From positions 1-43,307 of IMG/VR virus record IMGVR_UViG_3300043394_000368: 43,307 bases of DNA; one strand, written 5' to 3'. Position 1 is the first letter of the stretch, and the number at the start of each line of letters is the position of its first letter. The DNA comes from a virus (Duplodnaviria > Caudoviricetes). The position numbers and the translations under genes are program-made. This document shows, piece after piece, positions 14,535 to 39,898 of this stretch. The notes under the pieces are model-generated. The model ran no database searches. It worked only from the letters and a program-made list of their open reading frames with translations, and was not told where the DNA came from.

Positions 14535-14687
14535 ATGATTAAAGGAAACGACTTAACACTTGTAGAAGAATCCTACAACGAAGGATATGAAGCCGGTATA
14601 ATGGATTTCATTCAGAGAATCAAATCCATATTCCCCATAGACGATGAACATTTTATGGCAATAGCCAGAGACTTACTTGACGAGTGA
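14535..14687 (+). CDS. Small hypothetical protein (YNEGYEAG motif)
   Basis: MIKGNDLTLVEESYNEGYEAGIMDF. Confidence 0.45.
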   Translation: MIKGNDLTLVEESYNEGYEAGIMDFIQRIKSIFPIDDEHFMAIARDLLDE

Positions 14688-15257
14688 TTGTAAAAATAAC
14701 TTGTAACTATCCATATCTCTAACTTGAATACCACCGGATTGTTGCCCCCACTTTTCTCTACTTGGAAATAGAAATGTTGGAACTCCTGCTGATAGTGCAG
14801 TCTTAATCAATGTTGGTGTTTTGAACCCCATACTACACTTTCTACTCACATCAACATCCATTCTCTTGATATAACCAATAGCATTCTCTATGTATTCTTT
14901 TCGTGAGAATACCCGGTCTTCGTATTCTTCGTAATCATTTTTACCATGTTGGTCTTGCCAGTAATTGTAAGCACCACCTTTTAGTGTATTCCCCAACTTA
15001 CTACCATCCAATTCAAAACGAACAAAGTAACATTGGAAGTTACTTGTATTCCTTGTATAACCCTCAATTTTTGTTCTTGCAACGGACATATAGTAACCAT
15101 CTTGATACTTCTTGCCAGGTTCAACATTCATTTCAACCGGAATAGGTTGTAACTTAAACTTGTTCTTTTCGATGATAAGATTTGCCGCTTCCGTTGTAGT
15201 GAAGTGATACACTACATCGGATATTCTTTCGGTTAGTATGTCTTTTAATTTTATCAT
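14673..15257 (-). CDS. ADP-ribosyltransferase-fold candidate with MIKLKDILTE leader
   Basis: VVYHFT, YMSVART, FELDGSKL, EEYEDR arranged like ART strands; ATG overlaps the upstream stop. Confidence 0.55.
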   Translation of the reverse strand: MIKLKDILTERISDVVYHFTTTEAANLIIEKNKFKLQPIPVEMNVEPGKKYQDGYYMSVARTKIEGYTRNTSNFQCYFVRFELDGSKLGNTLKGGAYNYWQDQHGKNDYEEYEDRVFSRKEYIENAIGYIKRMDVDVSRKCSMGFKTPTLIKTALSAGVPTFLFPSREKWGQQSGGIQVRDMDSYKLFLQSLVK

Positions 15258-16144
15258 CTTGGTTTCTTCCATCCTATTGATTTTCTATATTGATCATAAT
15301 TATCAACTACCCAATTTACTGCATCTATCGCTTCACTCTTTCCTTGAGCACTTGTCATAAATAGTTTCTTACCGTCTTGTGAATATATGACATAACTACC
15401 CATCATTGCATATATTGGAACGATGTCTGTTGCTGTTTTACCATTAAAGATTGTTTGCCATTGTCTATCTGATACATGATAAGACCGTATACCAGAAGCA
15501 CGGAATACAAGTAGTGTCCCATCACCATAAACAGGTTCACCGCTATCCATTCCGTATTCATCAAAATCCGAGACAGTAAATGCAAAGTTATATCCACCTG
15601 CACTTTTTTGAGCAGATTCACCATCCCAAAAGGTAGTTAAACCCAATTTCTTAAAATCCTTTACACCCTTAATGAATCCTTGTCTCTTTATACTACCAAC
15701 ATCATCTTCGGTTGTTCCATGGACTAACCACTGATTCTTAACTAATTCAGGTTTCTTCAAGAATAACCAAGATGGCATATTCTCTGGTCCACCACCATAT
15801 ACGGTGTATAACTCTTGAAGGTATCCGGGTCTATTCACCATCAGATACTCATACCATTCAGTAACCAGACGATATAACTTTGGATTGTTTTCTTCTAATT
15901 CTTTGAATGATGTATACCCTTTTACTTTTTTCTCAGTTTTACTCATAACAATGTCTTTATTTTCTATGAAGTAGAACTTTATCATGTTCTTATATCCTAT
16001 CTTCCTAGCAATCTCAGCAAACCTACCGAACTTACCAAAGGTGTTGTCCAATGTCCCATCAAGATACTTCCACAGTTTTACTATGTCGGTGTCTACATAT
16101 TCCCGTAGTAGTGTCTGCTCAACCAAAGGTTTCAGTTTAATCAT
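15254..16144 (-). CDS. PARP-like ART-fold candidate, paralog A
   Basis: WLVHGT...IKRQGF...GGYNFA...YG...DRQWQTIF; leader MIKLKPLVEQTLLRE. Confidence 0.55.
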   Translation of the reverse strand: MIKLKPLVEQTLLREYVDTDIVKLWKYLDGTLDNTFGKFGRFAEIARKIGYKNMIKFYFIENKDIVMSKTEKKVKGYTSFKELEENNPKLYRLVTEWYEYLMVNRPGYLQELYTVYGGGPENMPSWLFLKKPELVKNQWLVHGTTEDDVGSIKRQGFIKGVKDFKKLGLTTFWDGESAQKSAGGYNFAFTVSDFDEYGMDSGEPVYGDGTLLVFRASGIRSYHVSDRQWQTIFNGKTATDIVPIYAMMGSYVIYSQDGKKLFMTSAQGKSEAIDAVNWVVDNYDQYRKSIGWKKPR

Positions 16145-16248
16145 GGCCGCCACCCCCCATAGCTAATGTTATCAGCCGCCTCCGTTTTGGTGAAGTGATA
16201 CACCACATCGGATATGCGTTCCGTCAATATATCTTTCAATTTAATCAT
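16141..16248 (-). pseudogene. 35-aa truncated copy of the 14673..15257 gene
   Basis: Own translation MIKLKDILTERISDVVYHFTKTEAADNISYGGWRP*; first 20 aa identical to the full gene. Confidence 0.85.
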
Positions 16249-17090
16249 CGTATTGGTTTCTCCCATCCAATTGCTTTACGGTATTGATCATAATTATTAA
16301 CTACCCAATTAACTGCACTACCGTGGTCGTTAAACTTTGCCAGAATTTTTCGTTCCTTTGATAATATAACCAAAGAACCGAATTGTTCAAATATAGGAAA
16401 AATATCTGTTGCTGTCTTACCATTGAATATAGTTTGATATTCGTTATCAGTAATATGGTAACTACGAATACCAGATGCTCGAAACATAAGAATAGTTCCA
16501 TCACCGTATGTAACACCACTATCCTTATATCCATATTGTTTGAAGTCTTCTATTGTATATGCAAAGTTATACCCACCTGCTCTTTTTTCCGCACTCTTAC
16601 CATCAAACCATGTGGTCAATCCTAACTTTGTCATATCACCCATGCCCTTTATGAAACCTTGCTTTGTCATAAACATTGCATCAGTTTGTGATGTTCCATG
16701 AATCAACCATTGATTCTTTATTATTTGGGGTTCCTGCAACCAATACCACGATGGAACAGTACGAAATTGTTTATTTGCTCTCTGATATAACCGTAAAAGT
16801 TCTTCGCCCATAATAACAAAACTATACCACTTCAAAAATTTAAGGTAATCCTCTGGTCCTCTTTGTGCCATAACGGACAATGAACCATAAGACTTTAATC
16901 TTCCTATTTCTTCTTCGTTAGGGTTTGAATAAGCATAGTGGTCTACCATTACAAAATACCCAACCGCCCTCTCCAATTCCCTTAATTTATCTTCAGGAGA
17001 AGAATTGAGGTATGCCATGAGTTTGGTTATGTCGGTATCAACATACTCCCTTAACAGAGTTTCCATCAATATGTCTTTCAGTCGTATCAT
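16245..17090 (-). CDS. PARP-like ART-fold candidate, paralog B
   Basis: WLIHGT...QGF...GGYNFAY...YGDGT...DNEYQTIF; clear paralog of 15254..16144; leader MIRLKDILMETLLRE. Confidence 0.55.
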   Translation of the reverse strand: MIRLKDILMETLLREYVDTDITKLMAYLNSSPEDKLRELERAVGYFVMVDHYAYSNPNEEEIGRLKSYGSLSVMAQRGPEDYLKFLKWYSFVIMGEELLRLYQRANKQFRTVPSWYWLQEPQIIKNQWLIHGTSQTDAMFMTKQGFIKGMGDMTKLGLTTWFDGKSAEKRAGGYNFAYTIEDFKQYGYKDSGVTYGDGTILMFRASGIRSYHITDNEYQTIFNGKTATDIFPIFEQFGSLVILSKERKILAKFNDHGSAVNWVVNNYDQYRKAIGWEKPIR

Positions 17091-17169
17091 TCTAACTCCA
17101 AATTATGACGGTGGAGGCCGGAAGACCCCCACCTATCAATCTTTATTGTATTGTGTCGTAGTGTTTTTC

Positions 17170-17730
17170 TCAACGAAACAAATCCATTATACTCATTTCA
17201 TGTGTTGCGGGTTTCCAGAACCACATAGCAAACCAAATTATCACAGAATACACCGCAAGGTAAAATATCTCTCTACCAGATGTAGAACGATCAGTTAAAC
17301 GATTTATCATACCAAGTGGTGTCCACCACAACCATGACATATCGGCATATGATATTAGTTCGTCTTCCTTGCCCAAAAGGACATAGAACAGAACATCACA
17401 TACACCCATCCACCAAAGGTATACATATCCACCCAAGACCCATAAATTCCAATGTGTAAGTAATCCCATAAGGATAAACACTAACCATTGAACCGTTGAT
17501 TGACCGATACGATACCTAATAAGATTCTCCCTCCTATCAGAGTGTGCCACAGACTCATACCCTATGACATCAAACGATGTAAAAAGAATTAACCCTAATA
17601 CAAGAATGATAGGATAACCAAGATTAACCCATCCTGCAATACCTAACCCGAACAGAGACAAAACAAGTGCTGGGAATGACATATCCCGGCGAATGAGGTT
17701 CCAAAAACTTTGTCCATCACCTTTACGCAT
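17170..17730 (-). CDS. Polytopic membrane protein
   Basis: About five hydrophobic segments; GGAG RBS. Confidence 0.7.
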   Translation of the reverse strand: MRKGDGQSFWNLIRRDMSFPALVLSLFGLGIAGWVNLGYPIILVLGLILFTSFDVIGYESVAHSDRRENLIRYRIGQSTVQWLVFILMGLLTHWNLWVLGGYVYLWWMGVCDVLFYVLLGKEDELISYADMSWLWWTPLGMINRLTDRSTSGREIFYLAVYSVIIWFAMWFWKPATHEMSIMDLFR

Positions 17731-17739
17731 ACAAGTCTC

Positions 17740-17835
17740 CTATTTGTTGAGAATCACCCATCTACCAATTAGTGCGGTTATGATAAGACACAACCAAACC
17801 CATTTACCTCTCTCACTACTAATCAATCTATGCAT
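17740..17835 (-). CDS. 31-aa single-TM peptide (not in ORF track)
   Basis: MHRLISSERGKWVWLCLIITALIGRWVILNK; AGGAG upstream. Confidence 0.45.
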   Translation of the reverse strand: MHRLISSERGKWVWLCLIITALIGRWVILNK

Positions 17836-17912
17836 GATAAAAAACTCCTACATTGTTTATCATAAATATGCCCTATTTATGTAATATGTTTTTTACCTAT
17901 CTGGAGTGTGTT

Positions 17913-18095
17913 ATGTTCATCCGAAAAGATATTACTGATTTGAACCCCAATGAAATCCTACACCAAATGGCAAATGAGTTGTTGATGTGGGATCCTGATG
18001 TTAAGGTTGGTGAGAAGTCCGAAAAGAAAGTATGTGAGAATGGTTGCCAGTGCCTGGATTGTGATGATGAAGTTGGTGACAATGTAACATGGTGA
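17913..18095 (+). CDS. Small protein with Cys cluster
   Basis: GGAG RBS; C-terminal CENGCQCLDC. Confidence 0.55.
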   Translation: MFIRKDITDLNPNEILHQMANELLMWDPDVKVGEKSEKKVCENGCQCLDCDDEVGDNVTW

Positions 18096-18119
18096 AACGA
18101 GTTGATAGAATTATTATAC

Positions 18120-18380
18120 CCAACGGGGTATTCCCAGACCTCGATTTTCCTATAGCAAAAAATTGGCTCCGGTCTGGAAACGGACTAGGCCTGGCAGGCC
18201 TAACCCCCTACCCCATAGGGATTTACGTTAAATTACCCCACCCCCCTACCAGGAGGGTATGTAACTCCTTATGCGCCACCCCCTTACACCCCTATCCTAA
18301 ACACCCCATTTTTGACCTATTTTTACCCCTATATCAGCATATCCTTATTTAGACTAAATCCAAATTTCATATACCCCAAA
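18120..18380. other. GC-rich, C-skewed non-coding hairpin cluster (candidate terminus/packaging site or origin)
   Basis: CCAGACC/GGTCTGG, TAGGCCT/AGGCCTA, CCCTA/TAGGG stems, poly-C runs, two 25-bp TAA-N19-TTA sites (18201, 18262). Confidence 0.45.
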
Positions 18381-18384
18381 ATAG

Positions 18385-18507
18385 TGCTTTGATCTTAACG
18401 CGCAATGCCTTATATTTGTAGTGTAAGATGAAGAACAACCAACACCCAATAGGGTAAAAAAAGAAAAATAATGCTTTGATCTTACAGAAAAAGTCCTTAT
18501 ATTTGTA
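18385..18507 (+). promoter_or_regulatory. Two tandem Bacteroidota-type promoters (18385, 18472)
   Basis: Near-identical to the copies at 7403 and 7596. Confidence 0.88.
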
Positions 18508-18541
18508 GAGTAATTAAGAAACAACCAATAGGAAAACGACC

Positions 18542-18808
18542 ATGAGACAGACCAAATCAACCCCAGTAGAATACACAGTAACCGTAACTGGTAGAGACCG
18601 TGACGGGTATTTGTCCAGTGAGACTGGTTCATTCGTTGCAGATAGTCCTCGTAATGCTAAGGACATGGCTCTTTCCTTTACCAGTCTTATGGGTGCTTCA
18701 GTAGAACATTGCCGTAAGGTAGATGAATTGGCTAATGATTATATGGGCTTTATGACTGTAACACCAGACTTCGATGATGCTGATGATGATGTTTGGTCTA
18801 TGTTCTAA
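18542..18808 (+). CDS. Small acidic early protein (beta-beta-alpha family)
   Basis: EYTVTVTG...VADSPRNA; AGGAAAACGACC-ATG. Confidence 0.7.
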   Translation: MRQTKSTPVEYTVTVTGRDRDGYLSSETGSFVADSPRNAKDMALSFTSLMGASVEHCRKVDELANDYMGFMTVTPDFDDADDDVWSMF

Positions 18809-18861
18809 TCATTACCTGCATACAGTATTACAGTATTATTATTTTAATTACCGAGAACATT

Positions 18862-19179
18862 ATGACAAACAGACCAAGAACCGAACGGAAACTTACACCA
18901 CCTACAGCAGAGGAATGGAGAATGCGTAACCGTGAAGCCCGTGCTAAGAAACAAACAGAGTTAGCTGAACAAATAGCTGACCGTATTACACAGGCGAACT
19001 GTGAGACTATTATGCTGATAGCTGGTGAGATAAGTAGTGTGGCTCACCGCATTCAATTATACAAGAAACATGATGTAGAGTTTCCTGGTTCATATATCAT
19101 TGAACTGCAGAACCATATCCATGAGTTGCAGACTTATCTTGTTCGTTTAGAAGAAACCGCTATTGGAATGCATGACTAA
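18862..19179 (+). CDS. Hypothetical helical protein
   Basis: Start MTNRPRTE after the GTATTATTATTTTAATTACCG leader. Confidence 0.7.
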   Translation: MTNRPRTERKLTPPTAEEWRMRNREARAKKQTELAEQIADRITQANCETIMLIAGEISSVAHRIQLYKKHDVEFPGSYIIELQNHIHELQTYLVRLEETAIGMHD

Positions 19180-19229
19180 TCATTGTTAGTATAGTAGTAT
19201 TATTTTAATTACCGAAAGGAAACAACCTT

Positions 19230-19463
19230 ATGAAAAAGAACAGACACATCCACGAATTCCAGGTCATAGTAACCGGTTTTCAACCTAATGGCGTACCAGT
19301 ATCTATGGATATGCTCGTCCATGCTAATACGGAATCTGCTGCTATGTTCAAAGCCGAGGATATTCTTATGAATACCTATGGTATTGATAATGCTATTACA
19401 GAGTCTATCGAATTGAATACCTATCCTGAGATGGATCTATTCCCTGACGACTTTCCTAATTGA
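19230..19463 (+). CDS. Small acidic early protein, paralog of 24597..24803
   Basis: HIHEFQVIVTG...HA...YGIDNAITESI. Confidence 0.7.
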   Translation: MKKNRHIHEFQVIVTGFQPNGVPVSMDMLVHANTESAAMFKAEDILMNTYGIDNAITESIELNTYPEMDLFPDDFPN

Positions 19464-19540
19464 ATTACATAAAAAATAATGATGTGTCTTCATCCGTATA
19501 GTATAGTATTATTATTTTAATTACCGTTAAGGAAACAACC

Positions 19541-19852
19541 ATGAATAAGACCAACGAAGAAGTGCAAGCCGGTGTAGTGAGATACTGGGAACGCAAGGCT
19601 AAAGAACACGGCATGACCGTTGATGAATACCATGAATACAGAAAAGAACAGGTTGAGATTAGGCAAAAGAAATGGGCTCAAGGTATGTGGGATGCTATGA
19701 CGTTTGAAGACGCAGATGATTTACTATTCTATTCTGAAAGAATGGCTGCTACTGCAAATGATGGTTTTACTGTTGATGATATTATTAAATTTCATGGATA
19801 TTACCAACTCATTACTGCGGTGCTTGATAGGATAGAAGAAAATAGAGATTGA
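19541..19852 (+). CDS. Hypothetical protein
   Basis: AAGGAAACAACC-ATG leader. Confidence 0.7.
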   Translation: MNKTNEEVQAGVVRYWERKAKEHGMTVDEYHEYRKEQVEIRQKKWAQGMWDAMTFEDADDLLFYSERMAATANDGFTVDDIIKFHGYYQLITAVLDRIEENRD

Positions 19853-19903
19853 TTGTCTTCATCCGTATAGTATTATTATTTTTATTACCGAAGGAAACAA
19901 CCT

Positions 19904-20137
19904 ATGAACAACAACGAACAACAATGGAATGTATATTACAAATATAACAGACCAGGTATTGATAAACTATTGACCAGTTATGGCGTAGTCATGGCTTCAT
20001 CGGAACAAGAAGCCCGTCATAAACTATATGAACATTGGTTCCAGAATACAATCGAAGGTCACACATTCAAAGGAATTGACCATGCTATGCCATCCCATGA
20101 CTTTGTTGATGAAGATGACTATTCGACTGGCTTCTAA
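19904..20137 (+). CDS. Small early protein (VxAxSxxEA motif)
   Basis: VVMASSEQEARHKL; same leader motif. Confidence 0.7.
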   Translation: MNNNEQQWNVYYKYNRPGIDKLLTSYGVVMASSEQEARHKLYEHWFQNTIEGHTFKGIDHAMPSHDFVDEDDYSTGF

Positions 20138-20170
20138 TCAACAACAATGCCACCTAACAAAATGAAATAC

Positions 20171-20206
20171 TGCTTGTATATGTCCGAAAAATGCCTTATA
20201 TTAGTA
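20171..20206 (+). promoter_or_regulatory. Variant Bacteroidota-type promoter
   Basis: TGCTTGTATATGTCCGAAAAATGCCTTATATTAGTA followed by GTATAAAATGAT as in the 7308 and 7596 copies. Confidence 0.7.
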
Positions 20207-20303
20207 GTATAAAATGATGAACAAACAAAAACACGGTAAGTAAATAATAAATAATTACTATCTTACTTACCACATTTCAATACCCTATTACAGGAGTAAT
20301 ACT

Positions 20304-20609
20304 ATGGCTAAGTCCACATCATCAACACCAGTTTACGCTCGTTCAAATGGCCAGAAGGTTGCTATTGCAACTATGAATGAGAACCATTTGCGTAATGTCA
20401 TCACACGATATGTAAACGGTGGAAAGGCTAATGGACGCAAAACAACATGGGCATCCACTACAACCGGCAAGAAGGTTTCTATTGGTTCCATGAATGTTGG
20501 CTATCTTCGTAATGCACTTGCTTCGGTGGTTGATTCCAAAGGTAACTTTACCAATGGCACAACACTTAAAACACCAAGTAAACGCAGAACGAGTAAATCA
20601 TCACGCTAA
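20304..20609 (+). CDS. Basic protein with internal duplication
   Basis: GQKVAIATMNENHLRNVI / GKKVSIGSMNVGYLRNAL; AGGAG RBS. Confidence 0.75.
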   Translation: MAKSTSSTPVYARSNGQKVAIATMNENHLRNVITRYVNGGKANGRKTTWASTTTGKKVSIGSMNVGYLRNALASVVDSKGNFTNGTTLKTPSKRRTSKSSR

Positions 20610-20623
20610 TCATGCGTGATTGA

Positions 20624-20763
20624 TAGGAGAACACAATCGGACTGCTCGAGGTGTCAATGGTTGGCAGTAACCTATCTGGTCGGACATGATGGAAGGCAAG
20701 TATTACGGTTTCGTTTACTGATGGTTTCGATTACCTCCATGTCCACAATCTATATGGCTCCTA
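20624..20763 (+). ncRNA. Candidate structured RNA containing a tRNA-like module (20682-20747)
   Basis: 7-bp GGACATG/CATGTCC stem then ACA; adjacent GGT-TTCGATT-ACC T-loop arm; outer TAGGAG/CTCCTA. Confidence 0.45.
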
Positions 20764-20828
20764 CATCGGTATTACTTTTTAATTCTGACGGTAACTATAT
20801 TACATATACAGTATAAGGAATAACAACC

Positions 20829-21629
20829 ATGCCTAACGGTATCTATCTTACACTCGAACAATACAAAGACAAAGACTTACCCATTACAATAACGATCAAT
20901 GGGCATACATACCATTCTCAATACGCACTTGCTACTACACAAACTACTTGGTTTGAAATGGGTAAACAACACGTCATGGAATTGGGTAGTGACAATACCT
21001 ATTCCGATAAAGAAATGTCTCGTATGCATGATCAATGGTATAACGAAGGTTATGCAGATGGATATGAACAATGTAAACATGACGGTATCAGTAAAATAAA
21101 CTATAATACCGAACCAGTTGAACAAACAGAACTATCAAAAGAATACGATAAAGGATTTACCAAAGGATATGAAGAAGGATATGAAGCTGGTAAGAAAGAA
21201 GCAACGCTTGAGAGAGTAGACCAATTTAATAAAGGATATGAGATTGGGAAATATGAAGGATATGAAGCCGGTAAGAAAGCCAACGGTATAAGTAATAAAG
21301 AATTACCAGGTGAATGGGTTTTGTATGTAGAACAAGCATATAAAGAAGGATATGAAGAAGGATATAACGATGCTAAGGGAGAAGATGATTACTGTAAAGA
21401 CTGTAAAGAAGAACCAGGTAAGGATGAACAAAACGCAAAAGAATTACCAGGTGAATATCTTTCCCATATAGAAGAAGCAAGACTTGAAGGATATGCTGAT
21501 GGTTTAGGTGAATATCTTTCCCATATAGAAGAAGCAAGAATCAAAGGATATGCTGATGGTTTCAATGATGGCAAGGAACAAGGATTTGAAGAAGGATTTA
21601 TGAATTTGAAATTGATATTGAAGAAGTAA
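20829..21629 (+). CDS. Protein with repeated YxxGYxxG (FliH/Yae1-like) glycine motifs
   Basis: GYADGY, GFTKGYEEGYEAG, etc.; internal DNA duplications encoding KELPGE and GEYLSHIEEAR. Confidence 0.75.
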   Translation: MPNGIYLTLEQYKDKDLPITITINGHTYHSQYALATTQTTWFEMGKQHVMELGSDNTYSDKEMSRMHDQWYNEGYADGYEQCKHDGISKINYNTEPVEQTELSKEYDKGFTKGYEEGYEAGKKEATLERVDQFNKGYEIGKYEGYEAGKKANGISNKELPGEWVLYVEQAYKEGYEEGYNDAKGEDDYCKDCKEEPGKDEQNAKELPGEYLSHIEEARLEGYADGLGEYLSHIEEARIKGYADGFNDGKEQGFEEGFMNLKLILKK

Positions 21630-21630
21630 G

Positions 21631-21790
21631 GTGGTGAGTATCTAGAGACTGCCACATAGACGAGGGCATCACGATTCCTATTTCGGCATAGCTTGTTGCT
21701 AATAAGTCCAACGGTCCATGGATGACCGATGCCCAAGTCCCGGTTATATGAATGACATACCATTCGGTAAGTGTGTATATCGGTGTTAGT
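21631..21790 (+). ncRNA. Candidate structured non-coding RNA
   Basis: Several GC-rich stems in a non-coding gap: GGGCAT/ATGCCC enclosing TAGC/GCTA and CGGTC/GACCG. Confidence 0.35.
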
Positions 21791-21890
21791 GAATGATACA
21801 TCATACGGCAATGGTGTTCCCTGGATGATAGAGCCAGTCTGTTATGCGCGTATGCGCGAGGCAGGACAGGAGGACAGGGCTGATCACACA

Positions 21891-21920
21891 CATTCACCAC
21901 ATTCTCCCACAACATCCCAC
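21891..21920 (-). repeat. Three GTGG boxes at exact 10-bp period (MraZ-box-like)
   Basis: Minus strand GTGGGATGTT GTGGGAGAAT GTGGTGAATG. Confidence 0.5.
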
Positions 21921-22280
21921 TGGTTCATACTTACTACCCACAGGTGTCATATTCATAAAACCCGCAATAACAAATATACCAACACATTATCTTTTATTTA
22001 CATATAGGTGCGGGATTGATTGGGCAGTGCTAAAATAATAGTTATATGAGAATTGTCTCAGTATCATAAAACTTAATTTTAGAGAGAACCCTTGTGTCTT
22101 TACTCATTCTTGGTGGTTGGTTATCCTTGTTATTCTATTTGGCATATAGGTATTTGCTTATCCGTAATAGAGAAGATAGGTTAGTATGGATTGTTATTCC
22201 GTATCTTCTTATCCTTATGGTTATATGTCTGTATAGTGGGTATCATTTGATATTCATATAGTATTCATATCTTATCCATA

Positions 22281-22314
22281 TTTTGATCTTATATCTGTAT
22301 TCCTTATATTAGCA
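22281..22314 (+). promoter_or_regulatory. Variant Bacteroidota-type promoter
   Basis: TTTTGATCTTATATCTGTATTCCTTATATTAGCA. Confidence 0.65.
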
Positions 22315-22354
22315 TATACAGTAGTTTTATTTTAGTTACCGTTGGAATTGAGTT

Positions 22355-22618
22355 ATGAGTGAAGAACAAAAATACTGGATTTGCATAATCGGTTCAGTTG
22401 AAGAAAGAAAATTAAAAAGTGGTGCTGACTTTCCATTAAGAAACGCAGTTGAAAACGCTTATGCTGATATGCTTGGTGATGAAGACACTGTTTGTTGGAG
22501 CGGATGGGGTTCAGGTCAAGAAAAAGTTGATACATTAAACGCTGTTTGGTCAATGGAAAAGGATGACCCATTATACATTTCTATACAAGCTATGTTAAAA
22601 GGCGCAGGTCGTCTTTAG
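22355..22618 (+). CDS. Hypothetical protein
   Basis: ORF directly after the promoter; YWICIIG...GADFPLRNAVE...SGWG. Confidence 0.7.
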   Translation: MSEEQKYWICIIGSVEERKLKSGADFPLRNAVENAYADMLGDEDTVCWSGWGSGQEKVDTLNAVWSMEKDDPLYISIQAMLKGAGRL

Positions 22619-22651
22619 GGTTGGTTTATTTTATTTCATTTGGAGTATGTT

Positions 22652-22888
22652 ATGAGAAAGAAACAAACACCGATAGAGTATATTGTCAATAGTCTCAATA
22701 ACCATTTCAGCACACTTGGTAGAGACGAAGTGGTATATCGCATAGGTGAGCGGCATTTGAAAACAATGATACGATACGCAAAGAAGTTAGATGAAGAACG
22801 ATTGCTTGAGTATTGGAAAGGTGGTCAAGCATCGGATGATGAAGGTGGTTTATCATTTGATGCATACCACAATGGTAAGGGTGAATAA
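22652..22888 (+). CDS. Hypothetical protein
   Basis: GGAG RBS before MRKKQTPIE. Confidence 0.6.
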   Translation: MRKKQTPIEYIVNSLNNHFSTLGRDEVVYRIGERHLKTMIRYAKKLDEERLLEYWKGGQASDDEGGLSFDAYHNGKGE

Positions 22889-24455: not shown

Positions 24456-24578
24456 ATGAAACGCTTAAAACACATTCTCAAAGAGACTGTAATCATTATC
24501 GGGATCACACTGTTTCTTCTCATTGTATCCAGTATTGATAGTCTCTTGGACATGGCAATGAATTATTTTAGACAATAA
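24456..24578 (+). CDS. 40-aa single-TM peptide (not in ORF track)
   Basis: MKRLKHILKETVIIIGITLFLLIVSSIDSLLDMAMNYFRQ; AAGGA RBS directly after the promoter. Confidence 0.6.
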   Translation: MKRLKHILKETVIIIGITLFLLIVSSIDSLLDMAMNYFRQ

Positions 24579-25585: not shown

Positions 25586-26125
25586 ATGAGTAAAGAACAA
25601 TTTTTTATCAATGCAAAATTGACCTTGCAAGGATGTGTCTATGATTTCCAATTAGACTTGGAAGAAACTCATACACTTGAAGATGCACTTGAACAACTAC
25701 AAATACATTTTGATAGTGCAATCCATGATGGCACTATTGTATTGCAAGACCCAGAGGACATTGACTACATAGACATTACCGAAGACATGGTGGAATTTGA
25801 TTTCAGCGAGATACCACAATTTCTAATTGGTGATTGGGATATATGGGATGCCATTTCAGAATTTGCGGAACACTATTACTCCAGTTTCTATGATGTAGAT
25901 GTATTCGAGGCGGCGCGGGATTGCGATATTCAATTCTCGGATATTGATGAATGTTATCAAGGCGAACATGATAGTGACGAAGACTTTGTGCAAAACTTGT
26001 GTGAAGACTGTGGAGACATACCAAGAGACTTGCCAAGTTATATTCACATTGATTGGGAAAGAACCGCTCGTGATGTAATGTATGACTATTCAGAAAGCAA
26101 CGGTCACTATTTCAGAAACATTTAA
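25586..26125 (+). CDS. ardA: Antirestriction protein ArdA (DNA mimic)
   Basis: Very acidic; YQGEHDSDEDFVQ...IP..L..YIHIDWERTARD...DY..SNGHYFR. Confidence 0.85.
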   Translation: MSKEQFFINAKLTLQGCVYDFQLDLEETHTLEDALEQLQIHFDSAIHDGTIVLQDPEDIDYIDITEDMVEFDFSEIPQFLIGDWDIWDAISEFAEHYYSSFYDVDVFEAARDCDIQFSDIDECYQGEHDSDEDFVQNLCEDCGDIPRDLPSYIHIDWERTARDVMYDYSESNGHYFRNI

Positions 26126-31183: not shown

Positions 31184-31676
31184 TCAAACAGACGGTGAAA
31201 GAGTTAGAAACATTGCTTACGGTTTCGTTGGAACGAAAGAAGTTGGAAACAATGGTGGATATTGGGTTACAAAATTTCTCAAATCCGTAGGACTTCGACC
31301 AGGTAATGCTTGGTGTGGTGCATTCGTTTCCTATTGTCTTGATAGTGCAGAAATAAAAACAATGCGTGTTCGTTCTGGATTGGCAAGACATTTCATTACA
31401 AAGAACAAGACTATCAAAGCAACAAAAGTTTTACAATCTAATATGAAGATACCGATGGGTTCGGTAGTTGTTTGGCGTAGAGGAACAACAATGTTCGGTC
31501 ATGTTGGATTCGTAGATAGTTGGCAAGGTAGAAGTGGAACTACCATAGAAGGTAACACTTCATCTGGCCGTAGTGGTAGTCAATGGAATGGTGGTGGTGT
31601 TTGGTCTCGTAAGAGAACGATAAATCCGTATGACCATTTCCGAATAACAGACTTTGCTTTGTTAGACCAACGATAA
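31095..31676 (+). CDS. CHAP-domain peptidoglycan hydrolase with signal-like N-terminus
   Basis: AWCGAFVSY, GHVGFV, TIEGNT; GGAGG RBS before GTG. Confidence 0.88.
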   Translation: MKYLLKTLSLMLFGCLVTSSPLLSASQTVDQTDGERVRNIAYGFVGTKEVGNNGGYWVTKFLKSVGLRPGNAWCGAFVSYCLDSAEIKTMRVRSGLARHFITKNKTIKATKVLQSNMKIPMGSVVVWRRGTTMFGHVGFVDSWQGRSGTTIEGNTSSGRSGSQWNGGGVWSRKRTINPYDHFRITDFALLDQR

Positions 31677-31710
31677 AATAAAGGTGAGTTTTTACTCACC
31701 TTTTTTATTT
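31676..31710. terminator. Bidirectional terminator
   Basis: AAAGGTGAGT-TTTT-ACTCACCTTT between convergent genes. Confidence 0.8.
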
Positions 31711-32049
31711 CCATTCATCACATATTAAAGAATAGTTACAAGTTAATTCTTCGCCAATAGAAATATCTCTTACTGCAATAGTTTTCCCATCTTGAGTATC
31801 TATACAATTATTATCTTCGCTATGATTCATAAATCTCATATTATCAAAATATGTTTGTCTGTATTCTCCAATTGCAGAAGAATACATTTTGAAAAACTCA
31901 TACTCACTTTTATCAATTTCATCTTTGTGAATCAATAAATCAAATTTACCAAGTTCACCAATGACTTGATTCTTTTTAATATCTTCGGATGTAAATAGCC
32001 CAATACCATGAACAGTTGATTTATCCAAATATGTTTTAATTCTAAGCAA
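31705..32049 (-). CDS. SET-domain protein (lysine methyltransferase)
   Basis: KSTVHGIGLFTSEDIKK, RFMNHS, AVRDISIGEELTCNY. Confidence 0.88.
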   Translation of the reverse strand: MLRIKTYLDKSTVHGIGLFTSEDIKKNQVIGELGKFDLLIHKDEIDKSEYEFFKMYSSAIGEYRQTYFDNMRFMNHSEDNNCIDTQDGKTIAVRDISIGEELTCNYSLICDEWK

Positions 32050-32098
32050 TTATTATCTCCAATGTTACCATAATCCATAAATATATCTTTTTAATTTA

Positions 32099-32134
32099 TG
32101 CTTTGTATTGATAAAAAAAAGTTGTATATTTGTA
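32099..32134 (+). promoter_or_regulatory. Bacteroidota-type promoter
   Basis: TGCTTTGTATTGATAAAAAAAAGTTGTATATTTGTA. Confidence 0.7.
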
Positions 32135-32198
32135 TATGTTTTGAAACATTATACTATATTTATTAGTGTTATGTTTTAGTGTTATGGGTTAGTGTGTT

Positions 32199-32894
32199 AT
32201 GAATAAAAAGATGGGCAGACCACCACTAATACTTACCGAATCACAAGTCAGATACGCAATGCAAAACAGTTTCGGTAATAAAGATGCTGCCAGATTTCTC
32301 AAAGTAGATTACAGAACTTACAAACGATGGGCACAACAGCACATTGATAGTGAGACTGGTAAAACTCTATTTCAATTACATTCAAAACTTGGTGTTCCGC
32401 TTACGCGGGAAAAGAAAGATGATAAGTGGAATGGTAAATCGTTTGACTGTAATAAAGGTTACAAAGAAAAGTTAGAGGATATTCTTGACGGTAAATATCC
32501 TGCATACGAAACAAAGAAGTTACGAAAGAGATTATTACTATCAGGATGGATTCCGTGTGTTTGTGCCGCTTGTGGGTGGGATGAACCGAGAATGACTGAT
32601 GGGAATTATCCATTACTGATAGACTTCATAGATAATAACTGGCGTAATTGTAAACTAGATAATCTGCGCCTGTTATGTTTTAATTGTTATTTCAATCTTG
32701 TTAGAACACCATCAACATCATATCAAGGATGGACATATGGTACAGTATCAAAGACACCTTGGTATGGCGAGAAACGTCCAAGAGACGGCAGATACCGTAG
32801 AAGATTGGAAGAACGAATCAAACAACAAGAACAAAAGAAAAAAGAAGAACAAGAAAAATTCTTTGAATGGGATGAAACTCCTGACGAAGAATAG
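32199..32894 (+). CDS. HTH plus degenerate HNH-like Zn-finger protein
   Basis: AARFLKVDYRTYKRWA; CAACG...LLIDFIDNNWRNCKLDNLRLLCFNCY. Confidence 0.7.
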   Translation: MNKKMGRPPLILTESQVRYAMQNSFGNKDAARFLKVDYRTYKRWAQQHIDSETGKTLFQLHSKLGVPLTREKKDDKWNGKSFDCNKGYKEKLEDILDGKYPAYETKKLRKRLLLSGWIPCVCAACGWDEPRMTDGNYPLLIDFIDNNWRNCKLDNLRLLCFNCYFNLVRTPSTSYQGWTYGTVSKTPWYGEKRPRDGRYRRRLEERIKQQEQKKKEEQEKFFEWDETPDEE

Positions 32895-32941
32895 ATGTTA
32901 TATGTGTGTTATTTTTATACAAATTTAATTTGGAGGTTTCT

Positions 32942-34929
<1,988 letters not shown>

Positions 34930-34935
34930 TTAAAT

Positions 34936-34970
34936 AAAAATCCCGCTCAAAAATAGAGTGGGATTTTTTC
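34936..34970 (+). terminator. Intrinsic terminator
   Basis: AAAAATCCCGCTC...GAGTGGGATTTTTT. Confidence 0.8.
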
Positions 34971-35021
34971 TATTACATATTTATATTTATGTTAGTATTT
35001 TGTAACACATATTAAGTTATT

Positions 35022-35807
35022 ATGGCAATACCATCATTAGCATCATTGATTAAGAGAAGGGATTTATCTGGAGTAGTTAGCGATACTATATCCTATTTAA
35101 CCCTACAACCATCAAAGAGAGTTTTGTTTTTAACAACATCAACTCGTTACCCATTTAATACGGAATACAATAAGAGTGGTGTTGAATTGGAGTTGCCTAA
35201 ATCAACTGAACTTGCTTTGTTTATTAGGGAAAATATACCAAACAAATCAGAATGGATAGATGTTCCACAATTGAAAATATATCCATGTGAAGGCAATGTA
35301 TCACACAAAACGGGCAACACTTGTGGTGTAATGGATGCGGTGCTAAAGGATAAGAAAAAAAATCCAACAGGCCATCACAGATGCTGGGCTTCGGTGAATG
35401 ATAAAGAAGATCAATTGTGGGAAATAAGTAAAGAGTTATTCAAAGCAGATATTATTTTATTTTTTGCATCTATTCGTTGGGGACAAACAAATTCAGAGTA
35501 TCAAAAGTTAATCGAGAGATTAACTTGGTTAGAAAATCGTCATAGCACATTAGGTGAAGAAAATATATTACAAGGTAAACAAGCAGGTTTTATTTGTATA
35601 GGACAAAATTGGAATGGTGCAAATGTAACACAAGTTCAAAAAAATGTATTGAACTTCTATGGATTTGATACTCCAGATAATTTGTTTTGGAACTGGCAAT
35701 ACACAACAGATGCTAATGATGAAACACACGAATCATATGCAGCATCAGATAAACAGTTTCATTTGGATTTAGGTATACCATATATTGATCCGGAGAAATA
35801 TGATTAA
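35022..35807 (+). CDS. Flavodoxin-fold NAD(P)H-dependent FMN reductase / iron-sulfur flavoprotein-like
   Basis: LFLTTSTR, IYPCEG...CG...RCWAS, ADIILFFASIRWG, KLIERL, GKQAGFI. Confidence 0.75.
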   Translation: MAIPSLASLIKRRDLSGVVSDTISYLTLQPSKRVLFLTTSTRYPFNTEYNKSGVELELPKSTELALFIRENIPNKSEWIDVPQLKIYPCEGNVSHKTGNTCGVMDAVLKDKKKNPTGHHRCWASVNDKEDQLWEISKELFKADIILFFASIRWGQTNSEYQKLIERLTWLENRHSTLGEENILQGKQAGFICIGQNWNGANVTQVQKNVLNFYGFDTPDNLFWNWQYTTDANDETHESYAASDKQFHLDLGIPYIDPEKYD

Positions 35808-36246
35808 ATTAAAAGACATATTGAATGAAGTGTTTAGTCTTGGATTCAATTTAGAGACTCCAGTTGCCAATGTGATAAAGTTGGGCAGGTCTCCATCAGG
35901 AAACATATTCTTAAACTTCAATGAAAATTCAATACGAGAAGGTCGTTCACCATCTGGCGATATTCTATTGACAATAGACAGAGATAGAATAAGATTAGGT
36001 AGAACTCCATCTGGAAGAATAATTGCCAGATTTGTAAATCCTTTTGTTAGATTAGGTGAAAGTCAAACAGGAAAAGTAATAGCAAATATAGATTCTTCAA
36101 ACAGAGTTAGAGAAGGTCGTTCACCATCTGGTGATATTCTTGCTACGGTTATTGTTGGTAAAAAAGAAAAGACAGATGCTAAAATGGCAGGAGCTGCTGC
36201 TGCAGTTTATTTGTTCACAAAAAATATGATAAGGATAATAGAATGA
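35800..36246 (+). CDS. Five-repeat beta protein with MIKLKDILNE leader
   Basis: Five ~19-aa repeats (I/V)RxGRSPSGxI; GGAG RBS. Confidence 0.75.
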   Translation: MIKLKDILNEVFSLGFNLETPVANVIKLGRSPSGNIFLNFNENSIREGRSPSGDILLTIDRDRIRLGRTPSGRIIARFVNPFVRLGESQTGKVIANIDSSNRVREGRSPSGDILATVIVGKKEKTDAKMAGAAAAVYLFTKNMIRIIE

Positions 36247-37415
36247 TTACTCTCAAAAACTTATTGAATACTATAATGGAAGATTCAAGAAAATCACAAA
36301 CTCGCCGTAAAAGATTTTGGATGGTAAACGAAGGCGGTGAAGTTGGATTTGAATTGGATGCAAAAGAATTTCAAGAATTAAATGCATTCGCAAAACAAGT
36401 TGGTGCAGACATTACACCATTTATTGAAATGGAATTGGATGAAAAAGAAAAACCTAAATACTTAAACATGACAACTGCAGAATTAGAAGAAGGTGGTTAT
36501 GTTGTTAAGATTGATAAATCAGTTTTCGATAGTGTTGAGGAGATAGTTGATTTAGGTATGTCTGCAAAGAAGTGGTATGAGGATATGAATAAGAAGATTA
36601 TGGAAGCTATGAATCAATCCGATGGATGTTTGTTCTTAATTCTTCTTGGTATATTTGCATCTTTTTCTAGATTAGCAGACAATTTCAAATTAGCGTCACA
36701 AGTTTATACCGGTATAAAAAGAGACTTATCTAATCCTGAAACAGAAAGACAACTTCTAGCTATGATTGAGTTACCAAGCACAGAAGTATATCAAAGAATA
36801 AAGACACGAAATGAATTTAAGAACTTGGCAACAGTAAAGGGATTCATTAAAGGAAACAAAAGTGTTCCAACTGTTTTACCAAACATATTAAGAACTCTCA
36901 AATTGTACAAAGCAAAAGGATATAAATTTGACACAAAAGATGTTGCAAACGAAATCGGTAAACACATAAGACAAGATACGGGTGCGTTATTAGATACAAA
37001 GGTCATTTCTTCTGAAAAGATATTATCATTCTGCCTTAATCTTATAGATCCAACATATAAAACTTCTTACGGTTGGATGCCAGTTACAATGGATATTTGG
37101 ATGGCAACATTTTTCTATCCCAATTTATCAACCGAAGAAAAGAGAAAGATATTGGCAAAAAATAAAAACTATGTATATCTTTCCAAACAAACACAAGACC
37201 TTGCTGCCAAATTCAACATGGAACCACTTGAAATGCAAGCGATACTTTGGGTTGGTACTATTCGTAAAAGAAAAGGTGATGCCTACCTATCAACATTCGA
37301 CCAGGCAATAGAACATAACCTAAATAAGTTTAATATAAAAATAGAAGAACTTAAAGAATCTGGAAAAGTATTTGAAGAAATAGTAACCCTAATAGGTAGT
37401 AAGGCATTAAGTTAA
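36243..37415 (+). CDS. HhH/EndoIII-like glycosylase-fold candidate with leader MITLKNLL
   Basis: KWYE, LLGIFAS...DNFKLA, KILSFCLNL, PVTMDIWM, P.EMQAILW. Confidence 0.45.
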   Translation: MITLKNLLNTIMEDSRKSQTRRKRFWMVNEGGEVGFELDAKEFQELNAFAKQVGADITPFIEMELDEKEKPKYLNMTTAELEEGGYVVKIDKSVFDSVEEIVDLGMSAKKWYEDMNKKIMEAMNQSDGCLFLILLGIFASFSRLADNFKLASQVYTGIKRDLSNPETERQLLAMIELPSTEVYQRIKTRNEFKNLATVKGFIKGNKSVPTVLPNILRTLKLYKAKGYKFDTKDVANEIGKHIRQDTGALLDTKVISSEKILSFCLNLIDPTYKTSYGWMPVTMDIWMATFFYPNLSTEEKRKILAKNKNYVYLSKQTQDLAAKFNMEPLEMQAILWVGTIRKRKGDAYLSTFDQAIEHNLNKFNIKIEELKESGKVFEEIVTLIGSKALS

Positions 37416-37450
37416 AAAGAAACCCCTCGAATTTCGAGGGGTTTTTTATT
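37416..37450. terminator. Bidirectional terminator
   Basis: AAACCCCTCGAA-T-TTCGAGGGGTTT between convergent genes. Confidence 0.88.
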
Positions 37451-37730
37451 AGAAGATGTCTTGTTTCAAATCACTTGTTATTATGTTCAAAAATTCAACA
37501 CCCTTAACTGTTAATGAGCAATCATTGAATCGTATTCTATTTTTAATACCTATTACAACATCATAGTCATATTTACGCCTATCTTTAATTTTATGCAGTT
37601 TAAGCAATACCCAATCTATCTTTTCCAAAACATCTTCTTTTTGTTCTTGTGAACTGTATGGTGTATATTCCACATAATTCAATTCAGACACATCATCTAT
37701 TTCCAAACTACTAAAAAACTGTTCTAACAT
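37449..37730 (-). CDS. Hypothetical protein
   Basis: In-operon ORF. Confidence 0.6.
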   Translation of the reverse strand: MLEQFFSSLEIDDVSELNYVEYTPYSSQEQKEDVLEKIDWVLLKLHKIKDRRKYDYDVVIGIKNRIRFNDCSLTVKGVEFLNIITSDLKQDIF

Positions 37731-37732
37731 AA

Positions 37733-38965
37733 TTACAAACTACCATAAGTTACAGATGCGTCTACACTATAATCTGACAGTATTTGAATATCAAATCCCA
37801 AAAATTTGAGTAAGTTATTGAGTGGTAAAGATAATTTAGTAGTGACTTCTTTCAAGAAATTCATTACACCATTTATTATTTTCTTAATAATAGATATACC
37901 TTTTTCTTGTATACTGTTCCATAAATCTGAAAATGCACCCTCTGATATTAACCTTGATTTTCTATTATGATACAATTTTCTTTCTTCAAGAACAAGTTTA
38001 TCGAATTTTTTTAACTCATTTTCCATGAATAATTGAACTGTTTTTGTTATACGAACACCGGAACTTTTAGAGCCGAATTTAGGTATTGTAAAACTAGAAA
38101 CCACTTTATCAGTAACATCTTTAACCGTATGATTTTTAATAGTTGAAAAGTCAGCAGTCCAAGTTAATATAGAATCTGCTCTGCCTTCCGAATCTCGACC
38201 TAACATTGTTTTACCAGATAATGATTCGTATATGAATGCCTTTTTGAAAGCATCATCTCCTTGTATTGAATCGAATATCTTTATTATTTGGTCATTCATA
38301 TCTTTTGTATTTTTATCGTAATCGGCTATCAATTCTTGCATGGTTGTATTTACAAGTTTTCTCAATTCACCAAGACCATATTTTTTATTATCAAACATCC
38401 TTGACAACTTAGCACCTTCAGCATTTGATAACTCTTTAAGAGTTGCAACAGATTTTCTTACAATTTCTTTTACCTTTATGTCTTGTTTTGTTTTATCCAT
38501 TGCACAATGTATCAACGCTATTATTTGTGGAGCAGATGCATCTAATACTCTAACTTTTGTGCTTGCATTTTTAACAGAATATGTAATACCTTGACCAATA
38601 ACATCTGCTTTAGATCTAACCGATCCTATTCCACCATACGCCTTCCAAATATCTGTTGTTGGGAAATTGGAATCACCAACTTGTTTTGCGTTTGATGGTA
38701 ACTTTTCTTTTTTTATTTCTAATATGGCACCGTAATATACTTCAACCGCATTACCTTTTAGAAATCTTCCAAAATAGTTTTTAAGAAAAACGGCATCTTT
38801 TACTCTTGTTTTGTAAAAAGTTGCAAATTCTTCCTTTGTCAAGTTTTGATTGGACATTAAAATAGCCAACACATTTTCGGCATCAGTTGATCCAGAAGTA
38901 TCTCCTTCTGATAACATAACTTCTTTCATCAATCTAACTAGTGACATATTTTTTTTACTTCTCAT
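37733..38965 (-). CDS. Restriction-endonuclease-fold candidate with LxE leader
   Basis: DAENVL, RSKADVI...YSVKN (KxD..SxK variant of PD-(D/E)xK); N-term LMKEVMLSE, internal RLISE. Confidence 0.45.
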   Translation of the reverse strand: MRSKKNMSLVRLMKEVMLSEGDTSGSTDAENVLAILMSNQNLTKEEFATFYKTRVKDAVFLKNYFGRFLKGNAVEVYYGAILEIKKEKLPSNAKQVGDSNFPTTDIWKAYGGIGSVRSKADVIGQGITYSVKNASTKVRVLDASAPQIIALIHCAMDKTKQDIKVKEIVRKSVATLKELSNAEGAKLSRMFDNKKYGLGELRKLVNTTMQELIADYDKNTKDMNDQIIKIFDSIQGDDAFKKAFIYESLSGKTMLGRDSEGRADSILTWTADFSTIKNHTVKDVTDKVVSSFTIPKFGSKSSGVRITKTVQLFMENELKKFDKLVLEERKLYHNRKSRLISEGAFSDLWNSIQEKGISIIKKIINGVMNFLKEVTTKLSLPLNNLLKFLGFDIQILSDYSVDASVTYGSL

Positions 38966-39573
38966 TTTGAAATTACTCCGAGTATTTTACCAAACTTTGT
39001 TGTGTATTTGATACGGTCTTGTAACCCATTAGTTCCACCGTTAATCAGTTTTGTTAATTCAAGTATAACTGTTTCAGTTAATCCTTTATCCGATACTGTA
39101 TTCAATTTATTCTTATGAAAGAACCATGCTGCTGATAGTAGTGGGTATCTATTTGCCACCAAATCTGGATTAGAGATAATATCCTCATTAACAAATTTAT
39201 CAAATGCAGTATAATTGTTTTTGCCTGTCAATTGAATATATCCTCTGCCTCTAAATTTCCAACCGTCATTTGTTCCTTCGGCACCATTACCCATTCTACT
39301 GGCATAAACTCTTGACGCAATTCTCTCTGGATTTCTAGAGTATGCTTCCGCAAGACCTGGTTGTTTGAAATACTTTGGGAATGTTGCTAACAAACCTTTT
39401 GTTGAATAATTCAAATTTTCCGTCTTAAACTTAAAGTTACCACTTTCATGTGCACATTGGCCGAGAAAATGTGACATTCTTACCGATGTATTTATTCCGA
39501 ATGTGTCTATTACAGATTGTAATTCACCATAAACACTATCCGGCAAATGTCCTTTTAGTTTTGTGATGTCCAT
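38962..39573 (-). CDS. Glycoside hydrolase family 19 endolysin
   Basis: HFLGQCAHESGNF, ENLNYS, DGWKFRGRGYIQLTGKNNY, TKLINGGTNGLQDR. Confidence 0.92.
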   Translation of the reverse strand: MDITKLKGHLPDSVYGELQSVIDTFGINTSVRMSHFLGQCAHESGNFKFKTENLNYSTKGLLATFPKYFKQPGLAEAYSRNPERIASRVYASRMGNGAEGTNDGWKFRGRGYIQLTGKNNYTAFDKFVNEDIISNPDLVANRYPLLSAAWFFHKNKLNTVSDKGLTETVILELTKLINGGTNGLQDRIKYTTKFGKILGVISK

Positions 39574-39577
39574 TGGA

Positions 39578-39898
39578 TTACCCCTTATTGGCAAAAAATT
39601 CCGTTACATGAAGCTTTGCCCAATCCGTAGGTGTATTTTTCCAAGCGTTTTTTCTTAAAGCATCCAACATTAAAGCAACATCTTCGGATTTTGCTTCCTT
39701 TTCATTTTGATTGAAAAAATCCCATTCATATTGAACAGCGTTTATGTATTCCGGATTGTTAGACAATCTATTTGTTAATACTTCTTCTTTTGCCTTAGGT
39801 GAAAGTTCCATTCCAAGATCTTGAAATATATCCTCTTTGAGTAATACACGTTTGAATTTATCTTGTAATTTTCTACCCTCACTTACTAAATCTTTCAT
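39578..39898 (-). CDS. Hypothetical protein with LVSE/LLKE motifs
   Basis: MKDLVSEGRKLQDKFKRVLLKEDIF. Confidence 0.6.
   Translation of the reverse strand: MKDLVSEGRKLQDKFKRVLLKEDIFQDLGMELSPKAKEEVLTNRLSNNPEYINAVQYEWDFFNQNEKEAKSEDVALMLDALRKNAWKNTPTDWAKLHVTEFFANKG

Follow-up and report, generated by a model that had tools for sequence, protein, structure and literature searches.

A short N-terminal leader shared by unrelated phage proteins as a candidate capsid-targeting propeptide

A stretch of viral DNA of 43,307 bases (G+C 35%), which is the entire IMG/VR record IMGVR_UViG_3300043394_000368 (G000) and is called the window hereafter, is a fragment of a large phage. Several of its genes encode proteins that begin with almost the same ten residues, MIKLKDILxE, and continue with bodies of different kinds, which raises the question of why such proteins should share their start. 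The principle of loading proteins into a phage head and then clipping them has been known from T4 since 1996. Comparison of the window with related sequences suggests that the leader is probably a propeptide of the same sort, comprising a capsid-targeting signal and a cleavage site. Most likely its cargo exceeds that of T4 in number and variety, and it comes in at least two interchangeable classes.

Leaders encoded in the window

The initial annotation placed leaders at eight positions, and all were found there on the strands given. MIKLKDILTE starts at 15257 (-) and at 16248 (-), MIKLKPLVEQTLLRE at 16144 (-), MIRLKDILMETLLRE at 17090 (-), MIKLKDILNE at 35800 (+), MITLKNLLNTIME at 36243 (+), MSLVRLMKEVMLSE at 38947 (-), and MKDLVSE...LLKE at 39898 (-). 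The last one, of 22 residues, belongs to a different class (class II). The genes concerned, and one additional gene with a decayed leader, are the following.

14673..15257 (-): protein of 194 amino acids (aa), with a 10-residue class-I leader (15228-15257) and a body of predicted ADP-ribosyltransferase (ART) fold, DarT/Tpt1-like
15254..16144 (-): protein of 296 aa, with a 15-residue leader containing two Glu sites (16100-16144), a helical domain and a weakly ART-like C-terminal domain; paralogue of 16245-17090
16141..16248 (-): stub of 35 codons, copied start of the 14673-15257 gene (leader plus about 15 codons)
16245..17090 (-): protein of 281 aa, with a 15-residue leader (17046-17090), a helical domain and a weakly ART-like domain (residues ~120-280)
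35022..35807 (+): protein of 261 aa, with a decayed leader lacking the Glu (MAIPSLASLIKR)
35800..36246 (+): protein of 148 aa, with a 10-residue class-I leader (35800-35829) and a 6-fold beta-flower body
36243..37415 (+): protein of 390 aa, with a 13-residue leader (36243-36281) and a DUF7178-like body
37733..38947 (-): protein of 404 aa, with a loose 14-residue leader (38906-38947) and a possible PD-(D/E)xK-like pattern (a lead only); directly after the GH19 endolysin gene
39578..39898 (-): protein of 106 aa, with a 22-residue class-II leader (39833-39898) and a body of no known fold

The degenerate pattern M-I-[KRT]-L-K-x-[IL]-[LV], searched at the DNA level, is matched six times in the window, against a mean of 0.05 and a maximum of 1 in 100 dinucleotide shuffles. 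A match at 24456 (+), MKRLKHILKE, starts a short membrane-like open reading frame (ORF) and was set aside as likely due to chance.

The bodies had been taken to be all unrelated. They amount to seven proteins in six families, because the 16248 (-) ORF is a stub and the bodies at 16144 (-) and 17090 (-) are paralogues (48% identical). The stub derives from the tandem duplication of a unit of about 990 bp (window 15184-17090), made of the ART-like gene and the start of the next gene, which copied the start of the gene at 15257 (-). A contig from the same sample reads through 15211-17400 with zero differences. In a contig from another study 15140 is followed by 16169, so that one repeat unit is missing, and the single-copy form of the unit is also found in the relative G007.

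Spread of the leader and enrichment at N-termini

The exact 10-codon pattern was scanned in 14 of the 64 parts of IMG/VR (~570 stretches estimated). The scan yielded 121 loci encoding 119 distinct proteins; without their leaders, these group into 72 body families. An in-frame stop lies within 30 codons upstream in 109 of the 119, and in none is it further than 60 codons. The 596 Gb of prokaryote genomes searched contain 15 stretches with the exact pattern, 14 of them distinct: eight start ORFs on small AT-rich contigs and look like mis-binned phage, one starts an apparently bacterial gene, and five are internal or very short.

A loose core motif (hydrophobic-x-x-hydrophobic-hydrophobic-x-Glu within the first 22 residues) was also monitored, on proteins called by a crude ORF finder. 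It is found at the N-terminus of 6 of 58 window proteins and of 6.6-18% of the proteins in eight other metagenomic records. Internal windows feature the core at rates of 1.2-1.9%, below the N-terminal rate in all nine records. That the motif should exceed its frequency in shuffled proteomes had been anticipated, and in eight of the nine records the count surpasses every one of 300 N-terminal shuffles; in the remaining one, G006, it equals the highest of them. The genes of the relative G009 were sorted by PHROGs (150 of 183 proteins scanned) and by eye. Loose cores were found in 1 of 42 genes for replication, metabolism or chaperones, in 1 of 5 core head genes (the scaffold) and in 21 of 123 other genes, a few of which will be chance matches.

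Relatives of the window and their head genes

The closest complete relative found, G009, is 177 kb long and matches 36 of 82 window ORFs with a median identity of 59%. G007 (115 kb) matches 33 of 82 with a median identity of 67%, and includes a head module. G005 and G006 are closer to the window than these two, and are fragments. Both G009 and G007 encode terminase, portal, gp21-type protease, bS21, scaffold and gp23-type capsid protein. The capsid protein of G009 shares 70% identity with its counterpart in Mel-JY01, 54% with that in Flavobacterium phage immuto, and 37% with that in RM378. Because of these identities, the window has been placed among the Far-T4 or RM378-like myoviruses encoding bS21 (PMC4360716, PMC9723584), of which Mel-JY01 and Immutovirus are cultured. 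G009 has likewise the terminase-portal-protease-bS21-scaffold-capsid protein module of these phages. The window differs in that its own head genes fall outside the contig, and the leader is absent from the passages of the two papers that were available.

Passages of PMC9723584 predict Bacteroidetes hosts for the bS21-encoding myoviruses. Mel-JY01 (PP395634.1) has been deposited as a Microcystis phage, while its capsid protein and bS21 module are those of the group predicted to infect Bacteroidetes. At 40701-42314 (-) in the window, a protein with a signal peptide and Ala/Ser/Asp repeats lies beside one that bears a C-terminal sorting domain for type IX secretion (Pfam Por_Secre_tail, E 1e-6). 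As this domain is a Bacteroidota type IX sorting domain, a Bacteroidota host is suggested.

Likeness to head-protease sites and to T4 leaders

A gp21-type protease and a gp23-type capsid protein were found in all five leader-bearing relatives searched. The G009 protease matches T4 gp21 (E 1.7e-18), and His76, Ser129 and Asp156, which we take to be the catalytic residues of gp21-type proteases, are invariant among 23 proteases. In five relatives, QLI[SD]E|[AS], ELIVE|T and QLVKE|A line up with the Tevenvirus junction SFLTE|A, and the cleavage site predicted for their capsid proteins follows from this alignment. The capsid-protein junction reads QLI[DE]E|S in 26 of 26 readable N-termini near G009 and the scaffold starts with DLL[KR]E|A in 40 of 41 cases, both sets being close kin and not independent cases. 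The leader ends as hydrophobic-hydrophobic-x-Glu, as do the predicted capsid-protein, scaffold and protease sites of the relatives.

According to parts of PMC9958956, T4 trims 65 residues off gp23 and 10 off gp24, and its capsid targeting sequence (CTS) is about 10 residues long; gp21 is active only inside the assembled prohead, so that cleavage implies a location inside. Translations of the T4 record start with MAKINELLRE in gp24, MKTYQEFIAE in the internal proteins IPII and IPIII, MLKEQLIAE in gp22 and MELITE in Alt. The CTS of IPII and IPIII, found also in IPI and Alt, resembles MIKLKDILxE in its length of about 10 residues, its Met start, its hydrophobic positions 4, 7 and 8 and its Glu10. 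Both peptides sit on unrelated and variable proteins, the relatives of the window have a protease, scaffold and capsid protein of T4 type, and Alt is an ADP-ribosyltransferase, a kind of body represented also among those tagged in the window. The two differ at residues 2-6, and T4 has four tagged genes whereas a genome here has about 5-20, dispersed outside the head operon. Leaders here come in two classes or more, unlike in T4, the cargo families do not match T4 internal proteins or Alt, and the system is known from its sequences. The gp24 propeptide shares with MIKLKDILNE its length, Lys3, hydrophobic positions 4, 7 and 8, an acidic residue 6 and Glu10. The gp22-type scaffold of the relatives begins with MNDLLKE|A. 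In T4 gp24 belongs to the shell and gp22 undergoes degradation, whereas in the window the peptide is found on non-structural bodies. The second leader class resembles instead the C-terminal tail of the scaffold in G003 and immuto (RMQ[KA]LAGII.E against RMQQLAGIITK); for the 39898 leader the likeness is loose.

Two other systems are comparable in part. In the jumbo phages SPN3US and phiKZ a gp21-like protease cuts many head proteins after Glu (A-x-E, S/A-x-E), and identical N-termini are found on diverged bodies, but the propeptides of their ejection proteins are mostly longer than 100 residues and have Ala or Ser at P3 (from parts of PMC5694885). Most SPN3US head proteins (42) are uncleaved, as reported in passages of PMC10052503. 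MuF-fused and polyvalent effectors (Iyer et al. 2022, PMC9503650, available in part) are also predicted to be head-packaged ARTs and other conflict enzymes of myoviruses; these are targeted by fusion to a folded domain or by gene neighbourhood, whereas the leader in the window is short and putatively cleavable.

Exchange of leaders between bodies

Leaders interchange between bodies at a fixed Glu junction, as seen in the alignments of homologous proteins. Among 105 homologues of the 17090 body, hydrophobic-x-Glu directly precedes the conserved start of the body in 100 of the 103 rows having a residue at the junction. The Glu junction is kept in 44 of 47 rows less than 40% identical, in which leaders are mostly 10-29 residues long and only two begin with MI[KR]L. 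Homologues of the 36243 protein have insertions in the leader and retain the Glu. The 39898 leader is shared with a G006 protein over 23 residues, with no likeness beyond, the bodies being different. The G006-type body carries a class-II leader in five loci and a class-I leader in G007, with 50-71% identity. In AlphaFold models of the 14673 and 17090 proteins, residues 1-10 are helical and form the least confident block, or tie with it, their predicted local distance difference test (pLDDT) values being 49 and 55.

One homologue of the 17090 body, P0207, has a leader ending in Leu-Ala rather than x-Glu, and its source phage may have a head protease cutting after Ala. The 35022-35807 (+) gene lies directly after groEL; its product contains Cys residues and looks like a flavodoxin or iron-sulfur flavoprotein, with no match in Pfam. 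Its orthologues elsewhere start with MNIPKLKTLLE or with MIKLKDILLE, the leader being intact in G007 and in the locus L111, and the protein is possibly a cargo being gained or lost.

Proteins carrying the leader

The body encoded at 14673 has the fold of ADP-ribosyltransferases, DarT/Tpt1-like, judging from its predicted structure (pLDDT 84.6), which aligns with Tpt1 at Z 9.7 (root-mean-square deviation 3.0, 112 residues aligned) and with DarT at Z 9.2 (3.6, 145 aligned). The first twelve structural matches are all ART-fold entries or likely so, and the best Foldseek E value is 9e-3. In the 73 sequences of the family S58, R61, E111 and E113 are invariant and H18 is nearly so; the His, Ser and Glu among them are putative catalytic residues. 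The 17090 body has many ART entries among its structural matches, with best Z values of 5.0-5.7 and none of 8 or more, and H131 and Q219 are invariant among its homologues. The ART-like label proposed earlier thus suits the 15257 (-) body well and the 17090 (-) body weakly. At E<=0.001 neither the 14673 nor the 17090 model had a Foldseek match.

The beta-repeat assignment of the 35800 body has been borne out, this being a beta-flower (Pfam Bflower_3, E 4e-13). The glycosylase-like label of the 36243 body has not been borne out: only DUF7178 was matched, below cut-off, and related sequences form viral-only clusters. With regard to a possible HhH-GPD glycosylase, a P-x-T-x-D-x-W motif is invariant in 20 homologues of this body, for which no PDB sequence match was found. 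The description of the 38947 body as nuclease-like stands as a lead only: ESM feature scores to HaeIII and MspI clusters are 0.81-0.83, and a KAD...SVK pattern is kept in four close homologues. None of the cultured phages searched matches this body, and the metagenome scan gave two close homologues only. For six of the seven bodies no family above cut-off was found in Pfam, PHROGs, NCBIfam or PADLOC, and the family profiles A1, A2 and A3 retrieved nothing from the PDB by sequence. Tagged G009 proteins include an S-adenosylmethionine (SAM) lyase and a zeta-toxin-like kinase, both above cut-off, a haloacid dehalogenase (HAD) phosphatase, and three weak ART matches. Some bodies do not look like effectors. 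The SAM lyase (G009:21865-22494, -; Pfam E 1e-10) has the leader MSKLSNILKE, and is a candidate virion-delivered anti-restriction enzyme.

A candidate late promoter

A recurrent motif, (C/G)ATATTTAT(A), is found 5-45 nt upstream of structural genes and of leader genes. It is the reverse complement of TATAAATA, which we take to be the T4 late promoter, and is a candidate late promoter of this phage group. Two copies head gene runs in the window, and a further one is found at ~17861-17869 (-).

34977..34985 (+): ATATTTATA, candidate late promoter before the 35022-35800-36243 gene run
39930..39938 (-): ATATTTATA, candidate late promoter before the 39898-endolysin-38947 gene run

The TATTTAT motif precedes 57 of 158 leader genes (36%) versus 183 of 1207 other genes (15%). 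In G009 it also stands in front of genes for portal, baseplate and tail.

Weighing of the evidence

The initial annotation regarded the leader as a portable address tag which loads enzymes into the head for delivery with the DNA. Enrichment at N-termini, an end resembling protease sites, the register shared with T4 peptides and the exchange of leaders all agree with this; the terminase, Mel-JY01 and the bodies that do not look like effectors do not fit.

A number of observations weigh against capsid targeting. The 43-kb window, being a fragment, contains no head genes, and the link to such genes passes through the relatives introduced above, with 33-36 of 82 window ORFs matched at 59-67% median identity; the 26 capsid and 41 scaffold sequences are close kin. 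The case is built on sequence comparison. In close relatives the large terminase, which one would not look for within the head, starts with ...NLKDIIKEE, and because this is a perfect match to the core, the loose motif is not specific. This terminase start occurs at L350:1753, L357:1770 and other head loci, and is probably a structural helix of the protein itself. Two of 13 tail genes of G009 also match the loose core. In the cultured phage Mel-JY01 there is no genome-wide enrichment (7 of 219 proteins against 46 of 2114 internal windows, p=0.22), whereas the metagenomic records are enriched, which suggests that the expansion of leaders differs by lineage. Mel-JY01 has three paralogues of the 14673 family with clear leaders, of the form MIKL[KM]SL[LV]xE, at 60276, 60923 and 62056. 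The non-T4 control DAC16 (first 150 of 178 kb) has 8 matches in 165 proteins, with p=0.012 versus internal windows, a count within the shuffle range. The Glu of the 35022 protein is missing in seven close orthologues, and although the candidate promoter heads two gene runs in the window, it is found within 80 nt of only one leader gene there. Finally, codon 7 is ATA in 68 of 72 families versus 32-49% in controls, and codon 6 is GAC in 47 of 72 versus ~25%; a signal residing in the peptide alone leaves this bias unexplained.

The codon bias, strong at codons 5-7, would be accounted for if the leader DNA were a signal for the initiation of late-mRNA translation, e.g. by ribosomes carrying phage bS21, the peptide being a by-product. 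That the relatives encode bS21 beside head genes, an arrangement reported in parts of PMC9723584, is in line with this, and so is the rarity of TTAAAA at codons 4-5 when codon 7 is ATT (5 of 21 leaders versus 56 of 109), as expected under avoidance of hairpins at the start site. Hairpin avoidance as the cause of the bias is suggestive, but the test on full hairpins gave p=0.30. As many as 102 DNA variants underlie the 119 leaders, with all six Leu codons in use at position 4 and Glu10 codons at background ratio; distant homologues retain the Glu junction behind unrelated leaders of 10-29 residues, and the tail tube, sheath and portal genes, which need high late expression, have no leader. A translation signal is accordingly improbable. 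Concerted evolution of the leader DNA within genomes was looked for in 17 leaders and none was seen (2.9 nt differences within genomes, 3.2 between them). Also to be considered is that the leaders have no function in common, being Lys/Ile/Leu-rich amphipathic starts of a common type spread by duplication and chance. The 16248 match is indeed a duplication stub, and chance accounts for the matches in the terminase and in a few bacterial genes, but the enrichment exceeds that of composition-matched shuffles, 72 unrelated body families are involved and the Glu junction stays fixed while leaders are exchanged, which makes this reading very improbable.

Two further explanations accept that the peptide itself matters. 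Targeting to the prohead core might be real, with the tagged proteins being core or filler components like T4 gp67 and gp68, degraded or staying in the head, and no injected set. The scaffold and several conserved head-operon genes share the core motif, there are several small bodies without a known fold, as at 39898 (-), and the 38947 (-) body has a further internal LISE|G. This fits poorly with tagged bodies that appear to be folded enzymes with conserved, putatively catalytic residues (the ART fold, and the SAM lyase and kinase of G009), and with bodies that differ from phage to phage in 72 families, unlike fixed core proteins, so that we consider it unlikely. The peptide could otherwise serve for control in the cytoplasm, either as a propeptide that inhibits the protein until the head protease cuts it off late, or as an address for a chaperone or protease such as GroEL or ClpP, with no role in packaging. 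In the window the 35022-36243 genes are closely preceded by those for GroES and GroEL, a ClpP-like protease is present in G009, and a cited paper states in its title that the N terminus of a T4 head protein directs proteins to GroEL. Since three of the four leader-rich records searched lack a GroEL match, phage-encoded GroEL has been rejected as the general partner of the leader; the restriction of T4 gp21 activity to the assembled prohead is a further argument against control in the cytoplasm, which is quite improbable.

Proposed function of the leader

A capsid-targeting propeptide is thus the reading retained. The tagged genes would be expressed late from promoters of the ATATTTATA type. 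The leader would fold as an amphipathic helix (hydrophobic positions 4, 7 and 8), mimic the N-terminal helix of the scaffold and co-assemble with the core. Cleavage after Glu by the gp21-type protease appears likely, and retention of the bodies in the mature head probable; ejection and action in the host, conceivable for the enzyme-like bodies only, has about an even chance. The head would carry enzyme bodies, for example the DarT-like ADP-ribosyltransferase, and discharge them into the next host alongside the DNA; new cargo would be gained when some 30-70 nt of leader DNA recombined onto a different gene. More tentatively, and falling short of an even chance, the leaders might constitute, in Far-T4 phages, an open cargo system readable from sequence, in which at least two interchangeable address peptides copied from the scaffold ends, by a swap of 30-70 nt, would make any gene a virion-delivered effector; they would then mark hundreds of unnamed families of injected anti-host proteins, including a DarT-like nucleic-acid ADP-ribosyltransferase.

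If capsid targeting is true, the first ten residues would single out, among the hypothetical genes of an abundant group of aquatic phages, those whose products travel with the DNA and act before any phage gene expression. A motif scan would find new anti-defence or host-takeover proteins (72 families came from about one fifth of a single exact-motif search), a protein-packaging tag would exist outside Tevenviruses, and the match to the N-terminal helix of the scaffold would offer a testable handle on the binding partner of the T4 CTS. A literature search, which largely did not cover subscription journals, found no account of such a leader for these phages, no paper containing the string MIKLKD or the name Mel-JY01, and no virion mass spectrometry for the group.

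Other features of the window

Among public sequencing runs, the full record was found in two, both from one freshwater sample; no RNA run containing the record was found among 24 sequencing runs. In addition to GroES/GroEL and the GH19 endolysin, the window encodes ThyX, UvdE, MoxR-vWA and three tRNAs. The ORF at 25586-26125 (+) encodes the anti-restriction protein ArdA, and that at 31705-32049 (-) a stand-alone SET-domain protein. At 18089-18400, where the direction of genes switches, there is a G+C-rich, purine-skewed stretch of non-coding appearance, possibly an origin or a genome end.

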